A stretch of DNA of 64,000 bases from Mucilaginibacter sp. 44-25 (GCF_001898335.1 NZ_MKTS01000007.1:9311-73310); one strand, 5' to 3'. Positions 10,909-40,806 are shown, counted from the first letter of the stretch. Notes: generated from the sequence alone by a model not told the origin. Numbers and translations: made by a program.

Positions 10909-13497
10909 TTAAAACCGGTAGTTAAACGATAAATAATGTATTGACCCTTCGGTTGAAAAGCCTTGTGAATATTGAATTGATATCAGATCGGCGGGATTAA
11001 TAAATATTCCACCACCGTAACCATCATGCCAATTGGAGGATGCCTCACCCGGCACCCAAACACGACCTACATCGTTAAATCCCGTAATACCAATAGATCC
11101 CGGGAAAAGGTAAGAGTTAAAATTGAATACTTTAAGCCTGAATTCTAATCCATTATAGGCCATGCTTTTGCCGGTGAACCGCCATGTATGGTAACCCCTC
11201 AAAGTTTGCAATCCTCCAAGTTTTAACTGCTGAAAGTATTCGGCATTACCTATTGTTGTACCCCAGCCTGTTCTGCCGGCAATAATTAACGTAGAATCGC
11301 CTCCGGGGTTAAGAAAAAAGCTAAACTCTGTAGATAATTGCGCATACTGTTTATGAGCATTATTGAGTTGTTGCAGGCCGGTTACATTAGTTGTCCAGTA
11401 AATGCCTTTGGTAGGGATAACACTGTTACGGGTATCATAGGTAAAACCGGTAATGAATCCGGCGTAGGCACTGCTGGAAAAAACACTTTGATCAGGGTGG
11501 GATTGATCATAAACCTGAAGGAATTTTTGGTTGTTATTGGCGACATTACTGGTGTAATATTGTCCAGCTAAACCCGCATATACAACGAGTTTGTTAAAAT
11601 TGTGCGACAAACTGATATTGGCATTCACCAGATCATACCGGTTGCGATAGTATTCGACGGGCTTTTGCAGATCACCTTTTTCATCGGTGGTATGGTTCTG
11701 CTCAAAAACGGTTTCGTTACCAATGCCAAAAAAGTTATTGACACGGTTGGGGCCCAGCGAGTGTACATTGATGTTAAGGTTATTATTGCCTACAGCCTTT
11801 TTGAAAATGCCCTGGTAGGTTAGCTCAAATGAATGCCTTGCCAACGAATAATTAACTAAAAACTCGTTCCGTGAAGCATATGGCTCTTTTCTGAAACCGT
11901 GCTTAGTAACAGCAAAACCGGCAATTAATGATAGCCCATAATCATTATTATAATTGGCCAGAATAATCGGCTCCGATCGGTCAAACTTGTAATTTTCCCG
12001 GTTGTAGGTATTTACTGCTGTATCGGCAGAAAGTCTTAAAGTAGCTTTAGATTTTCCTGAAATAATATTCTCCTGGTCAGATCGGTCATAAACCGATAGC
12101 CTATGCTTTACATTATCGGCGAAATTAAAGGTATCAACGCCACTACCACCTATTAAACGTATTTTTATAGGCGATTTGCCGGAGCCGGTGACATTAAAAT
12201 CATCATCACCATCAAATCCATATAGTCTTACTTCCTTAGTTTGTTTAGCAATAAACGTTCTGTGGTAAACAAGCTGCTTCTCTTTGTCGCTCTTTGCGAT
12301 TTTATGCACGGTAACATCAATCATGCTGTCTATTAAATAATTGATGTCAAACTTTTCCCGTTTATCAGATGCCGGTATATCCACAATTTTGGCCAAAAAG
12401 TAATAATAGGTCATGCCCCAGTCTGGCATATGATCTCGCCGGGCTTTCATGGTGTTAATGAGTTGGTGTGCCGATAGTGCGTAAATTTTAGGGGGAAGCC
12501 GCTTAAATGCAGCTTCAATTACTTCATTGGTCAGGTGTTGCTGTATGTAGCTGATCTGTTCATGCCAGTCAGCTTCATCTAATCCGTTTAAAAAATACCG
12601 ATCAAAATATTGCGCGTTGATATTCCACGCTTTAACGTCTCTTATGTTTTGTTGGTAGGGTTGGAATTTAGATTTTAACCATTGATGAGCAACAATCCAG
12701 GGAAGTATGCCGGAAGTTTGGTAGTAAACCTGATCGCGGTCGCGAGGTATGGGGGTATAAACTGTCTGCTTCCCATTTTTGTGTTTTTCCCATCTCCATT
12801 GATCTTCATGCCGGTCCCAATCTCCGAGGAGCATATCCAATAACCGGGCCCTCAACACTATTTTTGCATCAAAGGTTACATCATTATCCTCTTTTATTTT
12901 TTTCTGTACCTTAAAGGTGTTGTCGGTCTTAGTAGCATCCTCAGGCTGTCGTTCTTCAAAGAGGTATACTTTGTTCGCGTAGTCTTTTCTATATTCTCCT
13001 AAAGCTTCATCATCAGCAAGGTAAACTATTTCCGGATGGGTATGCTCAATATTCAAAGCCTCTGCAAGAGGAGGAACGGTAAGCGCCGCGAAGGGATTAG
13101 CGGTTGATACCTGGTCCTGCAGAATATCGCGCGCTACAGACTTGCGAAGTTTTGGTGATAAAACCCTTGCGGCATCCTTTTGAACAGAGCGCAAAACCCA
13201 TTCCTGCCCACTTGTATCTTTTAGCCGCAGCGATGATGTTTGCATGCCACCGCCTTTCCGTTCAATTAACAGCCCACCTTTTTCCTTTTGTATATGCAGA
13301 ACCCGTAGTTTAACCGGAACGGCCCAAAGCCTGCGATAATTCTCGCCTAACAATACTCTATGTAATTTGCTTACCCTGTTATATTGCGGCGCAATAGCAA
13401 CGGTAATGCTATCGTTTTTTATGGTTTGTGCGTAGGTAGTTGCACACATGGTTAAAGCCATCACAAACGCTTTTGTTAGTAATAATAAATGCTTCAT
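10909..13497 (-). CDS. Outer membrane protein: atypical kinase-like N-terminal domain + Gly/Asp repeats + Omp85-like beta-barrel (copy A)
   Basis: Signal peptide; GGGMQT, WVLRS, LLDMLLGDWDRHEDQW, PRDRDQ; GFDGDD and GGSGVD repeats; barrel with YDTRN, TLRGYHTWRFTG, FNDVGRVW; ends FNYRF. Confidence 0.8.
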   Translation of the reverse strand: MKHLLLLTKAFVMALTMCATTYAQTIKNDSITVAIAPQYNRVSKLHRVLLGENYRRLWAVPVKLRVLHIQKEKGGLLIERKGGGMQTSSLRLKDTSGQEWVLRSVQKDAARVLSPKLRKSVARDILQDQVSTANPFAALTVPPLAEALNIEHTHPEIVYLADDEALGEYRKDYANKVYLFEERQPEDATKTDNTFKVQKKIKEDNDVTFDAKIVLRARLLDMLLGDWDRHEDQWRWEKHKNGKQTVYTPIPRDRDQVYYQTSGILPWIVAHQWLKSKFQPYQQNIRDVKAWNINAQYFDRYFLNGLDEADWHEQISYIQQHLTNEVIEAAFKRLPPKIYALSAHQLINTMKARRDHMPDWGMTYYYFLAKIVDIPASDKREKFDINYLIDSMIDVTVHKIAKSDKEKQLVYHRTFIAKQTKEVRLYGFDGDDDFNVTGSGKSPIKIRLIGGSGVDTFNFADNVKHRLSVYDRSDQENIISGKSKATLRLSADTAVNTYNRENYKFDRSEPIILANYNNDYGLSLIAGFAVTKHGFRKEPYASRNEFLVNYSLARHSFELTYQGIFKKAVGNNNLNINVHSLGPNRVNNFFGIGNETVFEQNHTTDEKGDLQKPVEYYRNRYDLVNANISLSHNFNKLVVYAGLAGQYYTSNVANNNQKFLQVYDQSHPDQSVFSSSAYAGFITGFTYDTRNSVIPTKGIYWTTNVTGLQQLNNAHKQYAQLSTEFSFFLNPGGDSTLIIAGRTGWGTTIGNAEYFQQLKLGGLQTLRGYHTWRFTGKSMAYNGLEFRLKVFNFNSYLFPGSIGITGFNDVGRVWVPGEASSNWHDGYGGGIFINPADLISIQYSQGFSTEGSIHYLSFNYRF

Positions 13498-13775: not shown

Positions 13776-14663
13776 TTATTTTTTTACCGCAGGCTTGTTG
13801 TACGTAAACTTAAGGATGTTACCGTTTTCAAATTCGTCTCCCTCGTTAGAAATATACAGGTTTCCTTCTTTATCAAAAGCGATGCCTTCCGGCTGGGTAA
13901 ATCGCGAGTGCGGAAGCTTGTAGGTTGCTTTTGCGCGCCACTCGGCATCTGTTATCAACAAAAGATTGTTAGTTGCAGAAAGTATGTACCATAGGCCGTT
14001 TACAGGATTTTTAGCGAGTGCTGAGGGATGAAACGCTTCGTCAGCCCCGTTTTTTTTAGATAATTTCGGTAAGGCTATTTGAAAAGTACTCGTCTGCTTC
14101 AAGTTATTTTCATCGGTAGCATCAATTATATAACCGCCGTTTAGTAAACTTCCGTTTTCGGTATTGCAGTCTTTACATAGCACATATATTTTGTTTGTGG
14201 TGTTATCGATATATAATCCTTCGTATTCGGCTTTGGGAAGTATGCCTTTCAGTTGTTGCACATCAGACGGTTTTGGCTGTTTAATTTGCTCAATAGGAAA
14301 AGTAAACAAAGTGCCGTTACTTTTAAGCACGATGATACGGTTGTGAAGAATGCCGATATCCTCATAATCTCCTTGTTTAGCAAAGTGTGTGTAAGCCGGC
14401 TTCCGATCGCCGGGTTTAAAATAAAAAACACGCCCGTCTTCGTCCTGAACGGCATATATGGTATCAGCCTCATTATTCTTAAAAGCGATACCAGAAATTT
14501 CGAGCAGGTTTTCGCTCATTTTAAACCGTTGCGGTTTATCCAGTTGATAACCGGGCGGACTTACTATTTTATCGTTGCCGCTGTCAATACACGCCTGCAG
14601 AAAAATAGATAATAGGGCTATGATCAAAAAAATAGGTCTGTTTAAACAGCGTTGGCTTGACAT
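13776..14663 (-). CDS. SdiA-regulated family beta-propeller lipoprotein (copy A)
   Basis: Lipobox FLQAC; blades EISGIAF, DYEDIG, EYEGLY, FHPSALA, QPEGIAFD..LYISNEG. Confidence 0.8.
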   Translation of the reverse strand: MSSQRCLNRPIFLIIALLSIFLQACIDSGNDKIVSPPGYQLDKPQRFKMSENLLEISGIAFKNNEADTIYAVQDEDGRVFYFKPGDRKPAYTHFAKQGDYEDIGILHNRIIVLKSNGTLFTFPIEQIKQPKPSDVQQLKGILPKAEYEGLYIDNTTNKIYVLCKDCNTENGSLLNGGYIIDATDENNLKQTSTFQIALPKLSKKNGADEAFHPSALAKNPVNGLWYILSATNNLLLITDAEWRAKATYKLPHSRFTQPEGIAFDKEGNLYISNEGDEFENGNILKFTYNKPAVKK

Positions 14664-15892
14664 TAGTGCTTAATATTAACAATCGCGAATATCATGAAAG
14701 CTACAACAGATACAATTAGCCCAAACATGAAAATATTATATGAATATCTTAATAAACGGTATTTATGACCTAAAACAACGCCTTGTGAGTAGATATCCGT
14801 AATAAGGCTATCATAAAGGTATTCACTATCATGCATAACTTTCTGCATACCGGCTTTGTAATTTTCAAGGCTCATGCTGTAAAAATTGCCAAAGAAAAGC
14901 AGGTTTACCTTTTTATTATCTAAATCGCTCTGGGTATAGGTTCCATCGGGTATAGATGGCCTGGTGGCCAGTATAGCAAATATCATGGCGGATAAACTTA
15001 CTGCGATAATAAGTGTGGTGGGTATTACAAAGTAGGGGTGGTCTTCTAACCTGCGCAATAGCAAACTGATGATAGCCGACAATATGATGGAATTAACGGT
15101 GATCATGATATGCGCCTTATTGTCGGCAAGGTCGCTTAACCGCTGATGGTTGGTTGAACTCACCCTGAACATGGTTTGGACACCTTTATCCTGCTTATCC
15201 TCTTTTTTCTCTTTGGCAACTGCCAAGCTTTTAGCGTTTTCTTTAACTTTACTCTTTTTGGCCTCTTGTTTGGCTTGTTTCGGATTGTCAACGTTCCATT
15301 CGTTCTCTTTTTTTACCAGTTCAAGCAGGTTTCTTTGCTTTCCGGCATCCAGCAGCAAACGGCAATAGTCCGTATGGTAACGGTGTTGTTCCATTAGGGC
15401 AATAGTTTTTTGGCGCCATTGATGCTTGCTGATATCATGTCCGATAATGTTAATAGCTTCTTTTCTTAGTGCTTTGCTTTTTTCGCTAAAGTTATCTCCA
15501 CCCAGATGGAAAAGGTCAGCATCGCAAATGATCTGCTCTAAAAATGTTTCCGGCTTTTGAGGCATACGGGTAGCCATAATGCATTTTACTACCTGTTCGG
15601 TCACTTCTTCATCTATAGCGATAGAACGCAGGTAGTTTTGAGCTAAATTGGCACTATGTTGTTCATGTTGGTCAAGGCTTTCCAGATAACCGGTATCATG
15701 AAACCAGGCGGCACTTACTACAATAAAATAATCGGTATCATTTAACTGGTAGTGGTTACCAATTTGCATACACGCGGCCGCTACATCCTCAGTGTGCTGC
15801 TGATCATGGTAAACAAGTTTATGATTATGGTGAGTTTCGAAAAAAGTTAAAACATAGTGTTTAACCTGTTCTAATTGCGATTGATAGCTCAT
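14663..15892 (-). CDS. HD-domain protein fused to a Pycsar-effector-like (PycTM/DUF5706) membrane domain
   Basis: HD metal ligands YH..QHT, AWFHDTG, ICDADL. C-terminus LSDLADNKAHIM + 2 TM + ATRP + NLLFFGNF + HKYRLLRYSY + TM. TAATG stop/start overlap with the next gene. Confidence 0.85.
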   Translation of the reverse strand: MSYQSQLEQVKHYVLTFFETHHNHKLVYHDQQHTEDVAAACMQIGNHYQLNDTDYFIVVSAAWFHDTGYLESLDQHEQHSANLAQNYLRSIAIDEEVTEQVVKCIMATRMPQKPETFLEQIICDADLFHLGGDNFSEKSKALRKEAINIIGHDISKHQWRQKTIALMEQHRYHTDYCRLLLDAGKQRNLLELVKKENEWNVDNPKQAKQEAKKSKVKENAKSLAVAKEKKEDKQDKGVQTMFRVSSTNHQRLSDLADNKAHIMITVNSIILSAIISLLLRRLEDHPYFVIPTTLIIAVSLSAMIFAILATRPSIPDGTYTQSDLDNKKVNLLFFGNFYSMSLENYKAGMQKVMHDSEYLYDSLITDIYSQGVVLGHKYRLLRYSYNIFMFGLIVSVVAFMIFAIVNIKH

Positions 15893-38229: not shown

Positions 38230-40806
38230 ATGAAATTATCCTATTCATATTTTAATAAAGCTTTTTACATAGTATCACTTGTACTTTTATCCTTTACAAC
38301 TTTTGCGCAAACTAAAGTTACGGGTATTGTAACCGATGCCAAAACCAAACAGCCCATGCCGTATGTTACGGTAACCTTTGCAGGTACTACAATAGGGGCA
38401 GGTACCAATACAGATGGGCGCTATACTATTACGACAACACAGGATGTAAAACAGATCCAGGTATCTTTTGTGGGTTTCCGCACAGCTGTTCGCACTATCA
38501 CACCAGGGCTGGAGCAAATTGTTAACGTGGCTCTTAGTGAGGATAATCACAAGTTGAATGAGGTATTGGTTAGATCTGGCAAAAAAAAGAAGTATAGTAA
38601 CAAAAACAATCCCGCCGTTGAACTTATACGCAAAGTAATTGCCCATAAGCAACAAAACCAGGTTGAGAATTACAATTACGCCGAGTATAAGCAATACGAG
38701 CGTATGAATGTATCGTTAAGCAACCTTACAGAAAAGTTTAAAAACAAAAAGATATTTAAAAACTATCAGTTCCTGTTCCGTGAGCAGGCCGATTCAACGG
38801 CGATGGGAGGCAAGATAATGCTGCCTATTTACCAGGAAGAGAAGCTGTCTGACAACTACTACCGTAAAGACCCATATGCAAAAAAGCAAATTATTACAGC
38901 AAGTAAACAGGTAAAATATGATGAGAACTTCGTAGACAATAATGGCCTTAAATCATACTTCGACCGTATGTACCAGGATATTAATATCTACGATAATAAC
39001 GTATCGTTGCTAAGCAACCAATTATTAAGCCCTATTGCTGATAACTCTCCATCGTTCTACAAGTTTTTTATTACTGACACCCTTAAGGACGTACAGCCTA
39101 ATTTGATAGAGTTGAGTTTTACGCCTCGTAACACCAACAATATGCTGTTTGAAGGCCGTATCTATATTACGATGGACGGTAATTATGCGGTACAAAACGC
39201 TTTTCTTACGGTAAATAAAAATATCAACCTCAATTTTGTTCGCCAGCTGCAAGCCAATTTGTCTTTTGAAAAAAATACTGATGGGCGATATCATTTAAGC
39301 CAAAGCGACCTGAAAATTGAGTTTGGTATCAATAAAGAAAAAGGTGGCGGTATGTATGGCGAAAGATTGGTAAGCATCAATAATTTTGTGGTTAACAGCC
39401 CTCGTCCTAAACAAACCTACGAAGGCGCGTCACAGGTAATAGCACTTAATTCTGAAGATAAAGATGACGCTTACTGGAAATCGGCCAGGCCAGATACACT
39501 TGACGCTACTTCGGCCAGTATTTATAAGAATATAGATAGCCTGCAAACCATACCGTCTTTCAAAAAAACAATGGACATTGCTACGCTGCTGCTTGCAGGT
39601 TATAAAAACTTTGGCAAATTTGAGATGGGGCCGGCAAATACTTTCTACAGTTTTAACCCGGTTGAAGGCTTCAGGCTGCGCGTGGGTGGCCGCACTACGC
39701 CCGAGTTGAGCAAACGCTATTATTTTGAAACCTATGGCGCTTATGGTTTCCGCGACGAAAGGTTCAAGTATTTTTTAAGCAGTACTTATTCGCTTAATAA
39801 CAAATCCATTTATTCATTCCCACAGAATTATATCCGCGCCAGTTTCCAGCACGATACTAAAATACCGGGGCAGGAACTACAGTTTGTTCAGGAGAGTAAC
39901 TTCCTGTTATCATTCAAGCGGGGTGTGAATGATATCTGGTTGTATAATGATATTTTCAGGTTAGATTATGTGCATGAGTTCAGCAATCACTTCTCTTATG
40001 CTTTAGGCTTTAAAAAATGGAATCAGAACCCTGCCGGCGCATTAGTTTATCAAAACCTGCTGCCGGATGGCACTCTGAACAATGTTAATGAGATCAAAAC
40101 TACCGAGCTTTCGGCACAATTACGCTGGGCACCGCACGAGCGTTTTTATCAGGGCAAGCTCTATCGTACCCCTATACCGGATAAGTACCCTATATTCACG
40201 CTTAATTACACACAGGGTATAGCCGGTTTCTTTGGCGGTGAGTATAACTACCAAAATGTTATAGGTAATATTAGCAAACGTTTTTACTTTTCTACCTATG
40301 GTTATACAGATGTAACAACCGAGGGCGGATACCTTTTTGGAAAAGTACCTTTCCCGCTGTTGGATATCCATCATGCTAACCAAACCTACGCGTTTCAGTT
40401 ACAATCATATAACTTAATGAACTTCCAGGAGTTTGTAAGCGACCATTATGCCAGCATATTTGTAGATCATAATTTTAACGGGTACTTCTTCAATAAAGTA
40501 CCGTTGTTAAAAAGGCTCAAATTAAGAGAGATTATAGATGTGAAAGCATTATGGGGCGGTATTCGTTCTGAAAATAACCCTAATAATGATCCTTCATTGT
40601 TGCGTTTCCCGCGTAATCTTGGTGAAGCAGGTGAAGGAGGTGTTGGTACTTATACATTAGGAAGCACACCTTACGTAGAAGGAAGTATTGGTGTGGGCAA
40701 CATATTTAAGCTTTTACGTGTCGATCTGGTGAAGCGTTTTACTTATCTTGACCATCCCGGAGCGCCTGAGTGGGGGATAAGGTTTTTTGTTAAGTTTGAC
40801 TTTTAA
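38230..40806 (+). CDS. Outer membrane protein: carboxypeptidase-regulatory-like domain + DUF5686-type barrel
   Basis: Signal peptide; KVTGIVTDAKT.QPMPYVTV...VSFVGF (CarboxypepD_reg-like); ELIRKVI, LSPIA, YSFNPVEGFR, PY.E.SIGV.NIFKLLRVD; C-terminal Phe. Confidence 0.88.
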   Translation: MKLSYSYFNKAFYIVSLVLLSFTTFAQTKVTGIVTDAKTKQPMPYVTVTFAGTTIGAGTNTDGRYTITTTQDVKQIQVSFVGFRTAVRTITPGLEQIVNVALSEDNHKLNEVLVRSGKKKKYSNKNNPAVELIRKVIAHKQQNQVENYNYAEYKQYERMNVSLSNLTEKFKNKKIFKNYQFLFREQADSTAMGGKIMLPIYQEEKLSDNYYRKDPYAKKQIITASKQVKYDENFVDNNGLKSYFDRMYQDINIYDNNVSLLSNQLLSPIADNSPSFYKFFITDTLKDVQPNLIELSFTPRNTNNMLFEGRIYITMDGNYAVQNAFLTVNKNINLNFVRQLQANLSFEKNTDGRYHLSQSDLKIEFGINKEKGGGMYGERLVSINNFVVNSPRPKQTYEGASQVIALNSEDKDDAYWKSARPDTLDATSASIYKNIDSLQTIPSFKKTMDIATLLLAGYKNFGKFEMGPANTFYSFNPVEGFRLRVGGRTTPELSKRYYFETYGAYGFRDERFKYFLSSTYSLNNKSIYSFPQNYIRASFQHDTKIPGQELQFVQESNFLLSFKRGVNDIWLYNDIFRLDYVHEFSNHFSYALGFKKWNQNPAGALVYQNLLPDGTLNNVNEIKTTELSAQLRWAPHERFYQGKLYRTPIPDKYPIFTLNYTQGIAGFFGGEYNYQNVIGNISKRFYFSTYGYTDVTTEGGYLFGKVPFPLLDIHHANQTYAFQLQSYNLMNFQEFVSDHYASIFVDHNFNGYFFNKVPLLKRLKLREIIDVKALWGGIRSENNPNNDPSLLRFPRNLGEAGEGGVGTYTLGSTPYVEGSIGVGNIFKLLRVDLVKRFTYLDHPGAPEWGIRFFVKFDF

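Follow-up and report, generated by a model that had tools for sequence, protein, structure and literature searches.

An exported kinase-like domain fused to a POTRA-less Omp85 barrel in Mucilaginibacter and other Bacteroidota

CtkA of Helicobacter pylori (JHP0940; structures 3akj, 3akk and 3akl) is a soluble, stand-alone protein kinase that acts outside the cytoplasm of the cell that produces it. Along with Fam20C and actin-fragmin kinase, it is listed as a closest structural analogue of PI4KII-alpha (Zhou et al., PMC3974213), a membrane-apposed eukaryotic enzyme (structure 4hnd) that is cytosolic, palmitoylated and ATP-dependent. An enzyme domain of another kind is carried by the proteobacterial Omp85 protein PlpD: its patatin domain, which lies N-terminal to the barrel, was shown to be periplasmic, and a plpD mutant has an altered membrane lipid composition (PMC11116518). 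Full-text literature searches returned no report of a kinase-like domain on an Omp85 protein. Here, we describe such a fusion, encoded in a 64,000-nucleotide stretch of the Mucilaginibacter sp. 44-25 genome (GCF_001898335.1 NZ_MKTS01000007.1:9311-73310; hereafter, the window). The stretch holds two versions of the gene; most of what follows concerns the first, copy A, whose protein joins an exported protein-kinase-like (PKL) domain to an outer-membrane barrel.

The open reading frame (ORF) of copy A occupies window positions 10909-13497 on the minus strand, as do all of its parts listed below. Its translation is an 862-aa protein consisting of (i) a signal peptide, (ii) the kinase-like domain, (iii) an all-beta linker, and (iv) a 16-strand Omp85 barrel. 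The full-length AlphaFold2 model, built with 72 homologues, has a predicted local distance difference test score (pLDDT) of 91.8 and a predicted template modelling score (pTM) of 0.85. The N-terminus, MKHLLLLTKAFVMALTMCATTYA followed by Q, resembles a signal peptide for export by Sec and cleavage by signal peptidase I; read from the sequence, it spans aa 1-23 (13429-13497) with a likely cleavage site between TYA and Q, appears as a low-pLDDT helix in the full-length model, and contains the only cysteine of the protein. The earlier note on this DNA had proposed an exported, atypical kinase-like domain at 12400-13330, equivalent to about aa 56-366 of copy A; on the basis of the AlphaFold2 model, Foldseek and profile matches to the PDB, we place the PKL domain at aa 25-370 (12388-13425).

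That this domain is a true enzyme-type domain with a PKL fold is very probable, and the kinase-like fold proposed in the earlier note is borne out on three counts: a confident model, structural matches that are all kinases, and a profile match to CtkA. When the domain was modelled alone (aa 25-400, 88 sequences), AlphaFold2 returned an alpha/beta fold with a long helix at its end, with a pLDDT of 94.7 and a pTM of 0.92. A Foldseek search of the PDB with this model gave 12 matches at E <= 1e-3, kinases without exception, at a probability of 1.00. The top match is CtkA (E 7.8e-6; TM-score 0.53-0.56 normalised to the target) and the second is PI4KII-alpha (E 3.4e-5); Rio2, HipT and Fam20C follow (Fam20C at E 5e-4), with HipA, PI3K-gamma and mTOR lower in the list. 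Searched against PDB sequences, a profile of 50 N-domain sequences found CtkA as its sole significant match (E 0.0025), while phmmer with the single copy A protein gave chance matches only. In the HMMER alignment, the family segment lDlligD.....wDRHedQWrw is paired with WDMFVADtllgnFDRHNGNWGF of CtkA, and piPrDRDq with APIFDCGS. D228 thereby falls on the Asp of the CtkA DRH motif, Q233 on the Asn of DRHxxN, and D253 on the DFG-type Asp (CtkA positions 155, 160 and 179, by chain count); D155 and D179 are presumably the published catalytic residues of CtkA.

The order in which the structural elements occur in the model fits a kinase core: a strand, the Gly-rich loop and a further strand; the strand carrying R103, then K107; a helix, a hinge strand ending in FEER, another helix, the catalytic loop, a beta-hairpin, and RDRD. 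The Gly-rich loop KGGGMQT (aa 81-87; 13237-13257) lies between strands 77-82 and 89-93. In EWVLRSVQK (aa 99-107; 13177-13203), strand 99-104 (EWVLRS) bears R103, and K107 stands three residues beyond the strand end (VQK); the part of the beta3 Lys, for which the earlier note had named the Arg, may fall to R103 or to K107, which is just as invariant. The string YLFEER is found at aa 178-183. The segment aligned with the CtkA catalytic loop, DMLLGDWDRHEDQWRW, covers aa 221-236 (12790-12837) and includes D228, the presumed catalytic Asp going by the motif. PIPRDRDQ (aa 249-256; 12730-12753), also aligned with CtkA, contributes D253, directly after the beta-hairpin at 234-251 in the model, and then D255. 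AALTVPPLAEALNIEHTHP is likewise found in copy A, as are all the other motif strings quoted in the earlier note, and their coordinates were confirmed by translation.

The family and CtkA thus have in common the segment D-x4-[ND]-x-DRH-x2-[NQ]-W, the DFG-equivalent Asp, and a site of action outside the cytoplasm of the producing cell. They differ in that identity is only 11-13%, that CtkA has Asn where the family has an invariant Gln, that the family domain carries extra N- and C-terminal helices and RDRD in place of DCG, and that CtkA stands alone whereas the family domain is fused to an outer-membrane barrel. PI4KII-alpha belongs to the same structural neighbourhood; its catalytic loop, which we take to be DRGNDNW, compares with DRHEDQW in the family, and there is no evidence for a lipid substrate of the family. 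Fam20C and CotH resemble the family in being PKL-fold enzymes located outside the cytosol, but they use the ATP of their own compartments (the Golgi lumen and the mother cell, respectively) and have no detectable sequence relation to it; we know of no barrel fusion of either.

A further PKL protein, SEAE1 of Segetibacter aerophilus, has been reported as intracellular and PIK-like, with lipid kinases as its nearest structural relatives (bioRxiv 10.64898/2026.09.18.752743). Its residues D216, N221, D241 and D243 have the same spacings as D228, Q233, D253 and D255 of copy A, and its gene has a PAP2 neighbour; unlike the family, SEAE1 keeps the Asn and is intracellular. The S. aerophilus genome encodes four family members (873, 861, 1246 and 859 aa), none of which matches SEAE1 in numbering or in the Asn, and a search of this genome with the family profile at E <= 10 gave no fifth gene. 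SEAE1 is therefore not a member of the same family, and is at most a remote relative.

The putative active site is under strong constraint. Queried with aa 25-400 of copy A, a set of 1.84 billion representative proteins yielded 2529 clusters (50% identity) at E <= 1e-3, 1173 of them at E <= 1e-30. Conservation was read from an alignment of 352 sequences, made up of 120 near relatives, 150 representatives (50% clustering) and 82 ORFs from 80 loci, and extending down to about 36% identity. Sixteen positions are conserved at 98-100%: G82, G83, G84, R103, K107, E181, D221, D226, D228, R229, H230, Q233, W234, D253, R254 and D255. R103, K107, D221, D226, R229, H230, D253 and D255 reach 100%, Q233 stands at 99% and D228 at 98%; D232 follows at 95%, and some 13 Arg/Lys positions reach 90% or more. 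The residues of DWDRH and RDRD, singled out in the earlier note, are thus essentially invariant. Judged from the alignment, the motifs are not due to chance, and such a pattern would be expected of an active site or of a binding site for a strongly anionic ligand, but not of a pseudokinase in decay.

The domain is widespread among Bacteroidota, being present in 82 of 201 sampled genomes and 42 of 109 genera, with some loci from metagenome-assembled genomes of Chlorobiota and Rhodothermales. Three architectures occur: proteins of about 860 aa, of about 1220 aa, and stand-alone forms of about 500-590 aa. The commonest is the form of about 1220 aa, which has an N-terminal calcineurin-like metallophosphoesterase (PF00149; for example P0124, P0127, P0135 and P0270) whose closest solved relative is a weak purple acid phosphatase match. 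PF00149 is absent from both window copies in a Pfam scan, in keeping with the statement in the earlier note that related proteins carry such a domain while both copies here lack it; the two proteins encoded in the window belong to this kinase-barrel family as its short form. A hydrophobic N-terminus was detected by a simple hydrophobicity test in 219 of 244 full-length homologues, and most of the remaining 25 look like mis-called starts. Stand-alone forms carry signal peptides or lipoboxes. Since N-terminal hydrophobic stretches, signal peptides and lipoboxes occur across the family, the domain appears to be always extracytoplasmic, in agreement with the earlier proposal of export. Current annotation describes these proteins only as 'BamA/TamA family outer membrane protein'.

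Two loci illustrate the stand-alone forms. In one (L149; G148:C7:153500-158500), the gene for a 545-aa kinase-like lipoprotein precedes a distinct 403-aa gene, lipobox-like at its N-terminus and a putative metallophosphoesterase by its GDAGEPGN motif only, and then comes a further exported gene. If the assignment holds, this split version would mean that the two domains cooperate without covalent fusion. In the other (L147; G154:C27:61000-68500), the genome contains five members, three of which are adjacent stand-alone forms (ORFs of 518-570 aa, in open frames of 531-586 aa), two with lipobox-like N-termini.

Part of the family may be discernible in an earlier survey of Omp85 proteins. Heinz and Lithgow (2014; PMC4104836) defined a 'Metallo' subfamily, which the forms of about 1220 aa fit by domain content. 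That survey called PF00149 a metalloprotease, and the kinase-like domain of about 350 aa before the barrel went unrecognised. Its 'noNterm' barrels were found to resemble the 'Metallo' barrels (PMC4104836), a likeness that would fit the 860-aa form, with the mismatch that family proteins have about 480 aa ahead of the barrel. A Riemerella metallophosphoesterase was considered as a possible member and set aside as a different protein, an effector of the type IX secretion system. The family is not mentioned in a paper on the Flavobacterium Pho regulon.

Behind the kinase-like domain, secondary structure assigned by DSSP to the full-length model defines an all-beta linker at aa 371-506 (11980-12387), in which a small beta-sandwich gives way to short regular strands bearing the RTX-like sequences GFDGDD and GGSGVD (positions 427 and 450; conserved GGxGxD). 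R447, G450, G451 and D455 of the linker are nearly invariant. The RTX-like motifs (aa 427-455; window 12140-12220, minus strand) suggest a possible Ca2+-binding beta-roll. No POTRA domain was found in copy A: Pfam gives no match, and aa 371-506 do not show the beta-alpha-alpha-beta-beta pattern in the model. The remainder of the protein, aa 507-862 (10912-11979), ending in NYRF and hence retaining the C-terminal Phe, is a 16-strand barrel of the Omp85/BamA type according to the model, Foldseek and NF047779. Sixteen long strands lie within aa 507-860, and Foldseek matches the barrel to those of BamA at E ~1e-12 (TM-score 0.60-0.67 normalised to the target). NF047779 covers aa 580-862 at E 1e-26, with 94 bits against a curated cut-off of 200 bits; PF01103 has no match in copy A and is passed by copy B and most homologues. 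A full-length family profile run against the PDB retrieves barrels only (BamA/9ccg). LRGY at aa 766-769 (11191-11202, by translation) is a loop-6 motif of the Omp85 (V/I)RG(F/Y) type; it aligns with the LRGY/LRGF segment of BamA-family chains, and its R767 and G768 are nearly invariant. On the N-terminal side, NCBIfam matches are confined to the barrel and Pfam finds nothing in the copy A N-domain.

Copy A therefore has the general layout of PlpD, with an enzyme-type domain N-terminal to a 16-strand Omp85 barrel. In place of the patatin domain and single POTRA of PlpD, however, it has a PKL domain and a beta-sandwich with an RTX-like roll. Membership of the type Vd (PlpD-like) group was rejected for copy A, which has neither patatin nor POTRA and has only the layout in common.

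The second version of the gene, copy B, lies at 48442-51018 on the minus strand and encodes 858 aa with the same architecture (ORF; PF01103 Omp85 match). The two copies are 38% identical over their full length (43% in the N-domain, 35% in the barrel), agree at 24 of 24 key residues examined, and are the only family members in the assembled genome. An 858-aa exported protein with CarboxypepD_reg and DUF5686 at 38230-40806 (plus strand) is unrelated, despite having the length of copy B.

A gene for a beta-propeller lipoprotein lies upstream of each copy. Propeller lipoprotein A (13776-14663, minus strand; 295 aa, lipobox LQAC) is of the NHL/SdiA-regulated type, with matches to PF06977 and NHL; relatives of the propeller in the PDB are the PknD-sensor and Pizza NHL propellers. 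Its start codon is overlapped by the stop of the gene upstream, which encodes a 409-aa membrane protein with an HD domain and PycTM (14663-15892, minus strand; PF18967 at E 6e-34, YedJ-like HD). Propeller lipoprotein B (51034-51885, minus strand; 283 aa, lipobox VSC, PF06977) ends 15 nt before copy B, and upstream of it, with a 4-nt overlap, is a gene for a 682-aa PPK1 paralogue (51882-53930, minus strand; TIGR03705 at 669.8 bits, above the cut-off). Divergent from this PPK1 gene are two genes on the plus strand: one for a 204-aa PAP2-family membrane phosphatase (54120-54734), and one for a 791-aa protein with weak GAF similarity and no Pfam family (54864-57239). The latter is 30% identical to a neighbour protein of about 785 aa found at other family loci (L065:5507-7861, L001:3650-5974), and is a conserved but uncharacterised partner in the cluster. 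A promoter/terminator scan, which does not cover Bacteroidota promoters, gave counts below the shuffle mean.

The same partners recur elsewhere. We counted neighbours within 8 kb at 80 loci from different species, with ORFs called naively as the longest. The HD-PycTM gene is near the family gene in 51 of the 80, the propeller lipoprotein gene in 35 (often abutting or overlapping the start of the family gene), PPK1 in 24, the 785-aa GAF-like protein in 24, and PAP2 in seven (e.g., L015:13038-13649). The distant long-form member P0124 has the same partners in another gene order. A class III nucleotide cyclase (PF00211) is encoded at 18 loci, in one case directly upstream (L031:5863-6717); together with PycTM and the GAF-like partner, it hints at cyclic-nucleotide control of the module. 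The closest solved relatives of the metallophosphoesterase, the propeller and the HD domain are uninformative with respect to substrate.

The linked PPK1 appears to be a version of its own. The window genome has two PPK1 genes; the second (G000:C1:186428-188425) scores 764 bits against 670 for the window copy and groups with the non-linked PPK1s of related genomes. A second PPK1 is also held by 10 of 12 other genomes with a linked one. In a tree in which every 'linked' label was matched to locus coordinates, the thirteen linked PPK1s, window copy included, form one clade (support 98/95), and none of 500 label shuffles was as clustered. PPK1 copy number and family presence show no clean correlation, many family-bearing genomes having a single PPK1. 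In many genomes of one large Bacteroidota family (f25; e.g., G083, G179, G027 and G147), the only PPK1 gene is consistently on the same contig as a kinase-Omp85 gene of about 1250 aa and 12-16 kb away from it, a longer-range synteny beyond the reach of the 8-kb counts.

Taking these lines together, we lean towards the reading that the family domain works as an active enzyme of the phosphotransferase type, tethered to the outer membrane on its periplasmic side, and belongs to a Bacteroidota-specific phosphate or polyphosphate module of the cell envelope. Under this proposal, Sec would export the protein, the POTRA-less Omp85 barrel would anchor the kinase-like domain in the outer membrane, and the all-beta linker would fix the enzyme domain rigidly below the barrel. 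The reaction of the domain would be phosphoryl transfer or chemistry close to it, with an acceptor in the envelope, for example an outer-membrane lipid, the head group of lipopolysaccharide (LPS), a glycan or a protein. The phosphoryl donor could be polyphosphate, from the linked PPK1, or a nucleotide. The NHL-propeller lipoprotein, the HD-PycTM protein of the inner membrane and a dedicated, polyphosphate-making PPK1 would be partners in the module, and the fused or adjacent metallophosphoesterase, similar to purple acid phosphatases, may reverse or complement the reaction. Direct involvement of polyphosphate is put forward tentatively, as less likely than not. A more far-reaching version, which we regard as unlikely, would make the domain a periplasmic PKL enzyme that draws on polyphosphate in place of ATP, at the outer-membrane end of a trans-envelope polyphosphate system: PPK1 would make the polymer, HD-PycTM would pass or gate it through the inner membrane, and the barrel-anchored kinase/metallophosphoesterase pair would write and erase phosphate on outer-membrane lipids, LPS or proteins or, alternatively, build envelope-bound polyphosphate.

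Several points weigh against an active envelope phosphotransferase of this kind, and the main difficulty is the phosphoryl donor. We know of no ATP pool in the periplasm and of no PKL-fold enzyme that uses polyphosphate, and the cluster shows no evident exporter or other means for polyphosphate to cross the inner membrane. The site itself departs invariantly from canonical kinases in two respects: Gln233 occupies the position of the metal-binding Asn, and the beta3-like strand bears an Arg, with Lys four residues on. Such changes might point to another chemistry or to ligand binding without catalysis, although Gln233 could act as a metal ligand despite being non-canonical. The TM-scores to kinases are moderate (0.4-0.56). 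A relaxed Pfam scan of 50 members at E <= 10 gave scattered chance matches and no kinase family, PI3_PI4_kinase (PF00454) and HipA_C (PF07804) being among the profiles without a match, and hhalign against 29 Bacteroidota HipA proteins returned a probability of 0.3. Because the Pfam and HipA profiles fail to detect the domain, we place it in a PKL family of its own, outside both of these families. The genomic association is also uneven: about 20 of the 26 closest copy-A-type loci have no linked genes within 8 kb, and since its closest relatives are so often without linked neighbours, copy A is probably a dispersed paralogue of the cluster-embedded type. PPK1 linkage may, moreover, partly reflect inherited synteny rather than function. 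Finally, the periplasmic orientation is drawn from the PlpD analogy and the AlphaFold2 model.

On that orientation, the N-domain probably faces the periplasm, because the linker holds it rigidly beneath the barrel in the model; an even-stranded Omp85 barrel has both of its termini in the periplasm. The earlier note had raised the possibility that the domain is a passenger of its own barrel. Such a surface-displayed, type Vd-like passenger would act on external substrates or those of neighbouring cells, or scavenge phosphate together with the metallophosphoesterase. The arrangement of an enzyme before an Omp85 barrel does match the original PlpD/type Vd proposal (PMC4104836), several of the fold relatives are exported kinases (CtkA, Fam20C), and the mature copy A protein is cysteine-free. 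The enzyme domain of PlpD, however, was later shown to remain periplasmic (PMC11116518), and because this comparable fusion keeps its enzyme inside, the passenger topology becomes the less likely one. Barrels of the BamA type are closed towards the outside, and the model packs the domain confidently on the periplasmic end of the barrel (pTM 0.85). A folded N-region of about 480 aa, with no POTRA and no obvious pore-threading linker, would be a poor substrate for passage, and the stand-alone forms are ordinary lipoproteins or periplasmic proteins. We consider surface display unlikely.

What the domain does at the periplasmic face can be read in other ways as well. It might be a non-catalytic pseudokinase or receptor that has taken the place of the POTRA domain, either binding a phosphorylated ligand (polyphosphate, a lipid or a nucleotide) or docking the propeller lipoprotein for insertion or export by the barrel, in a two-partner or Slam-like manner. 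The missing POTRA, the periplasm being free of ATP, the Gln in place of the canonical Asn and the Arg on the beta3-like strand would all suit such a role, as would the lipoprotein gene that accompanies the barrel gene at 35 of the 80 loci, frequently abutting it with start and stop overlapping. Yet the presumed catalytic Asp, the two metal-binding Asps, the His and the Gly-rich loop are conserved at 98-100% across hundreds of divergent sequences, which is more typical of catalysis than of a scaffold, and the domain is also found without a barrel, leaving this reading at fairly long odds. PKL enzymes with non-kinase chemistry are established, and the fold might here serve nucleotidyl transfer or AMPylation, known from SelO, glutamylation, known from SidJ, or the phospho-hydrolysis of polyphosphate or phospholipid head groups. 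Here, the atypical but invariant site (Gln for Asn, the two-Asp RDRD, D221, D226, D232 and some 13 Arg/Lys) and the hydrolases among the linked enzymes (metallophosphoesterase, HD, PAP2) are set against nearest structural and sequence relatives that are true kinases with the DRHxxN/D arrangement; nothing points specifically to another reaction, and we give this alternative little weight. Least probable by far is a component of a Pycsar-type anti-phage or abortive-infection system. The HD-PycTM membrane domain matches the PADLOC models for PycTM and 2TM effectors, and 18 of the 80 loci encode a class III cyclase, but PADLOC has no match for the kinase-Omp85 protein, the propeller, PAP2 or the 791-aa protein. 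The family is found in 41% of Bacteroidota genomes, mostly with no more than two copies per genome, and it sits in syntenic contexts alongside a co-diverging PPK1 clade; this broad syntenic spread is unlike that of patchy, mobile defence islands.

The envelope phosphotransferase reading thus remains the one we favour, and the protein described here represents a new PKL family, in a fusion and a compartment without precedent. Enzymes with a kinase fold come as a surprise where ATP is absent, and Omp85 proteins are usually viewed as POTRA-bearing insertases or translocases of proteins; this large family couples a strongly selected kinase-like site to a barrel without POTRA, with a phosphoesterase fused on in most lineages. 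The lesson from PlpD, that an Omp85 barrel can anchor a periplasmic enzyme, would extend to a second and far more widespread case. If the domain is active, one has to ask how the periplasm is supplied with phosphoryl groups, and which molecules of the envelope receive them, in a phylum that matters in soil, water and the gut. Should the trans-envelope polyphosphate system prove true, it would provide both the first ATP-independent phosphotransferase with a kinase fold and the first defined phosphorylation system in the bacterial periplasm. The gene clusters with a dedicated PPK1 point to unexplored phosphate chemistry in the cell envelope.

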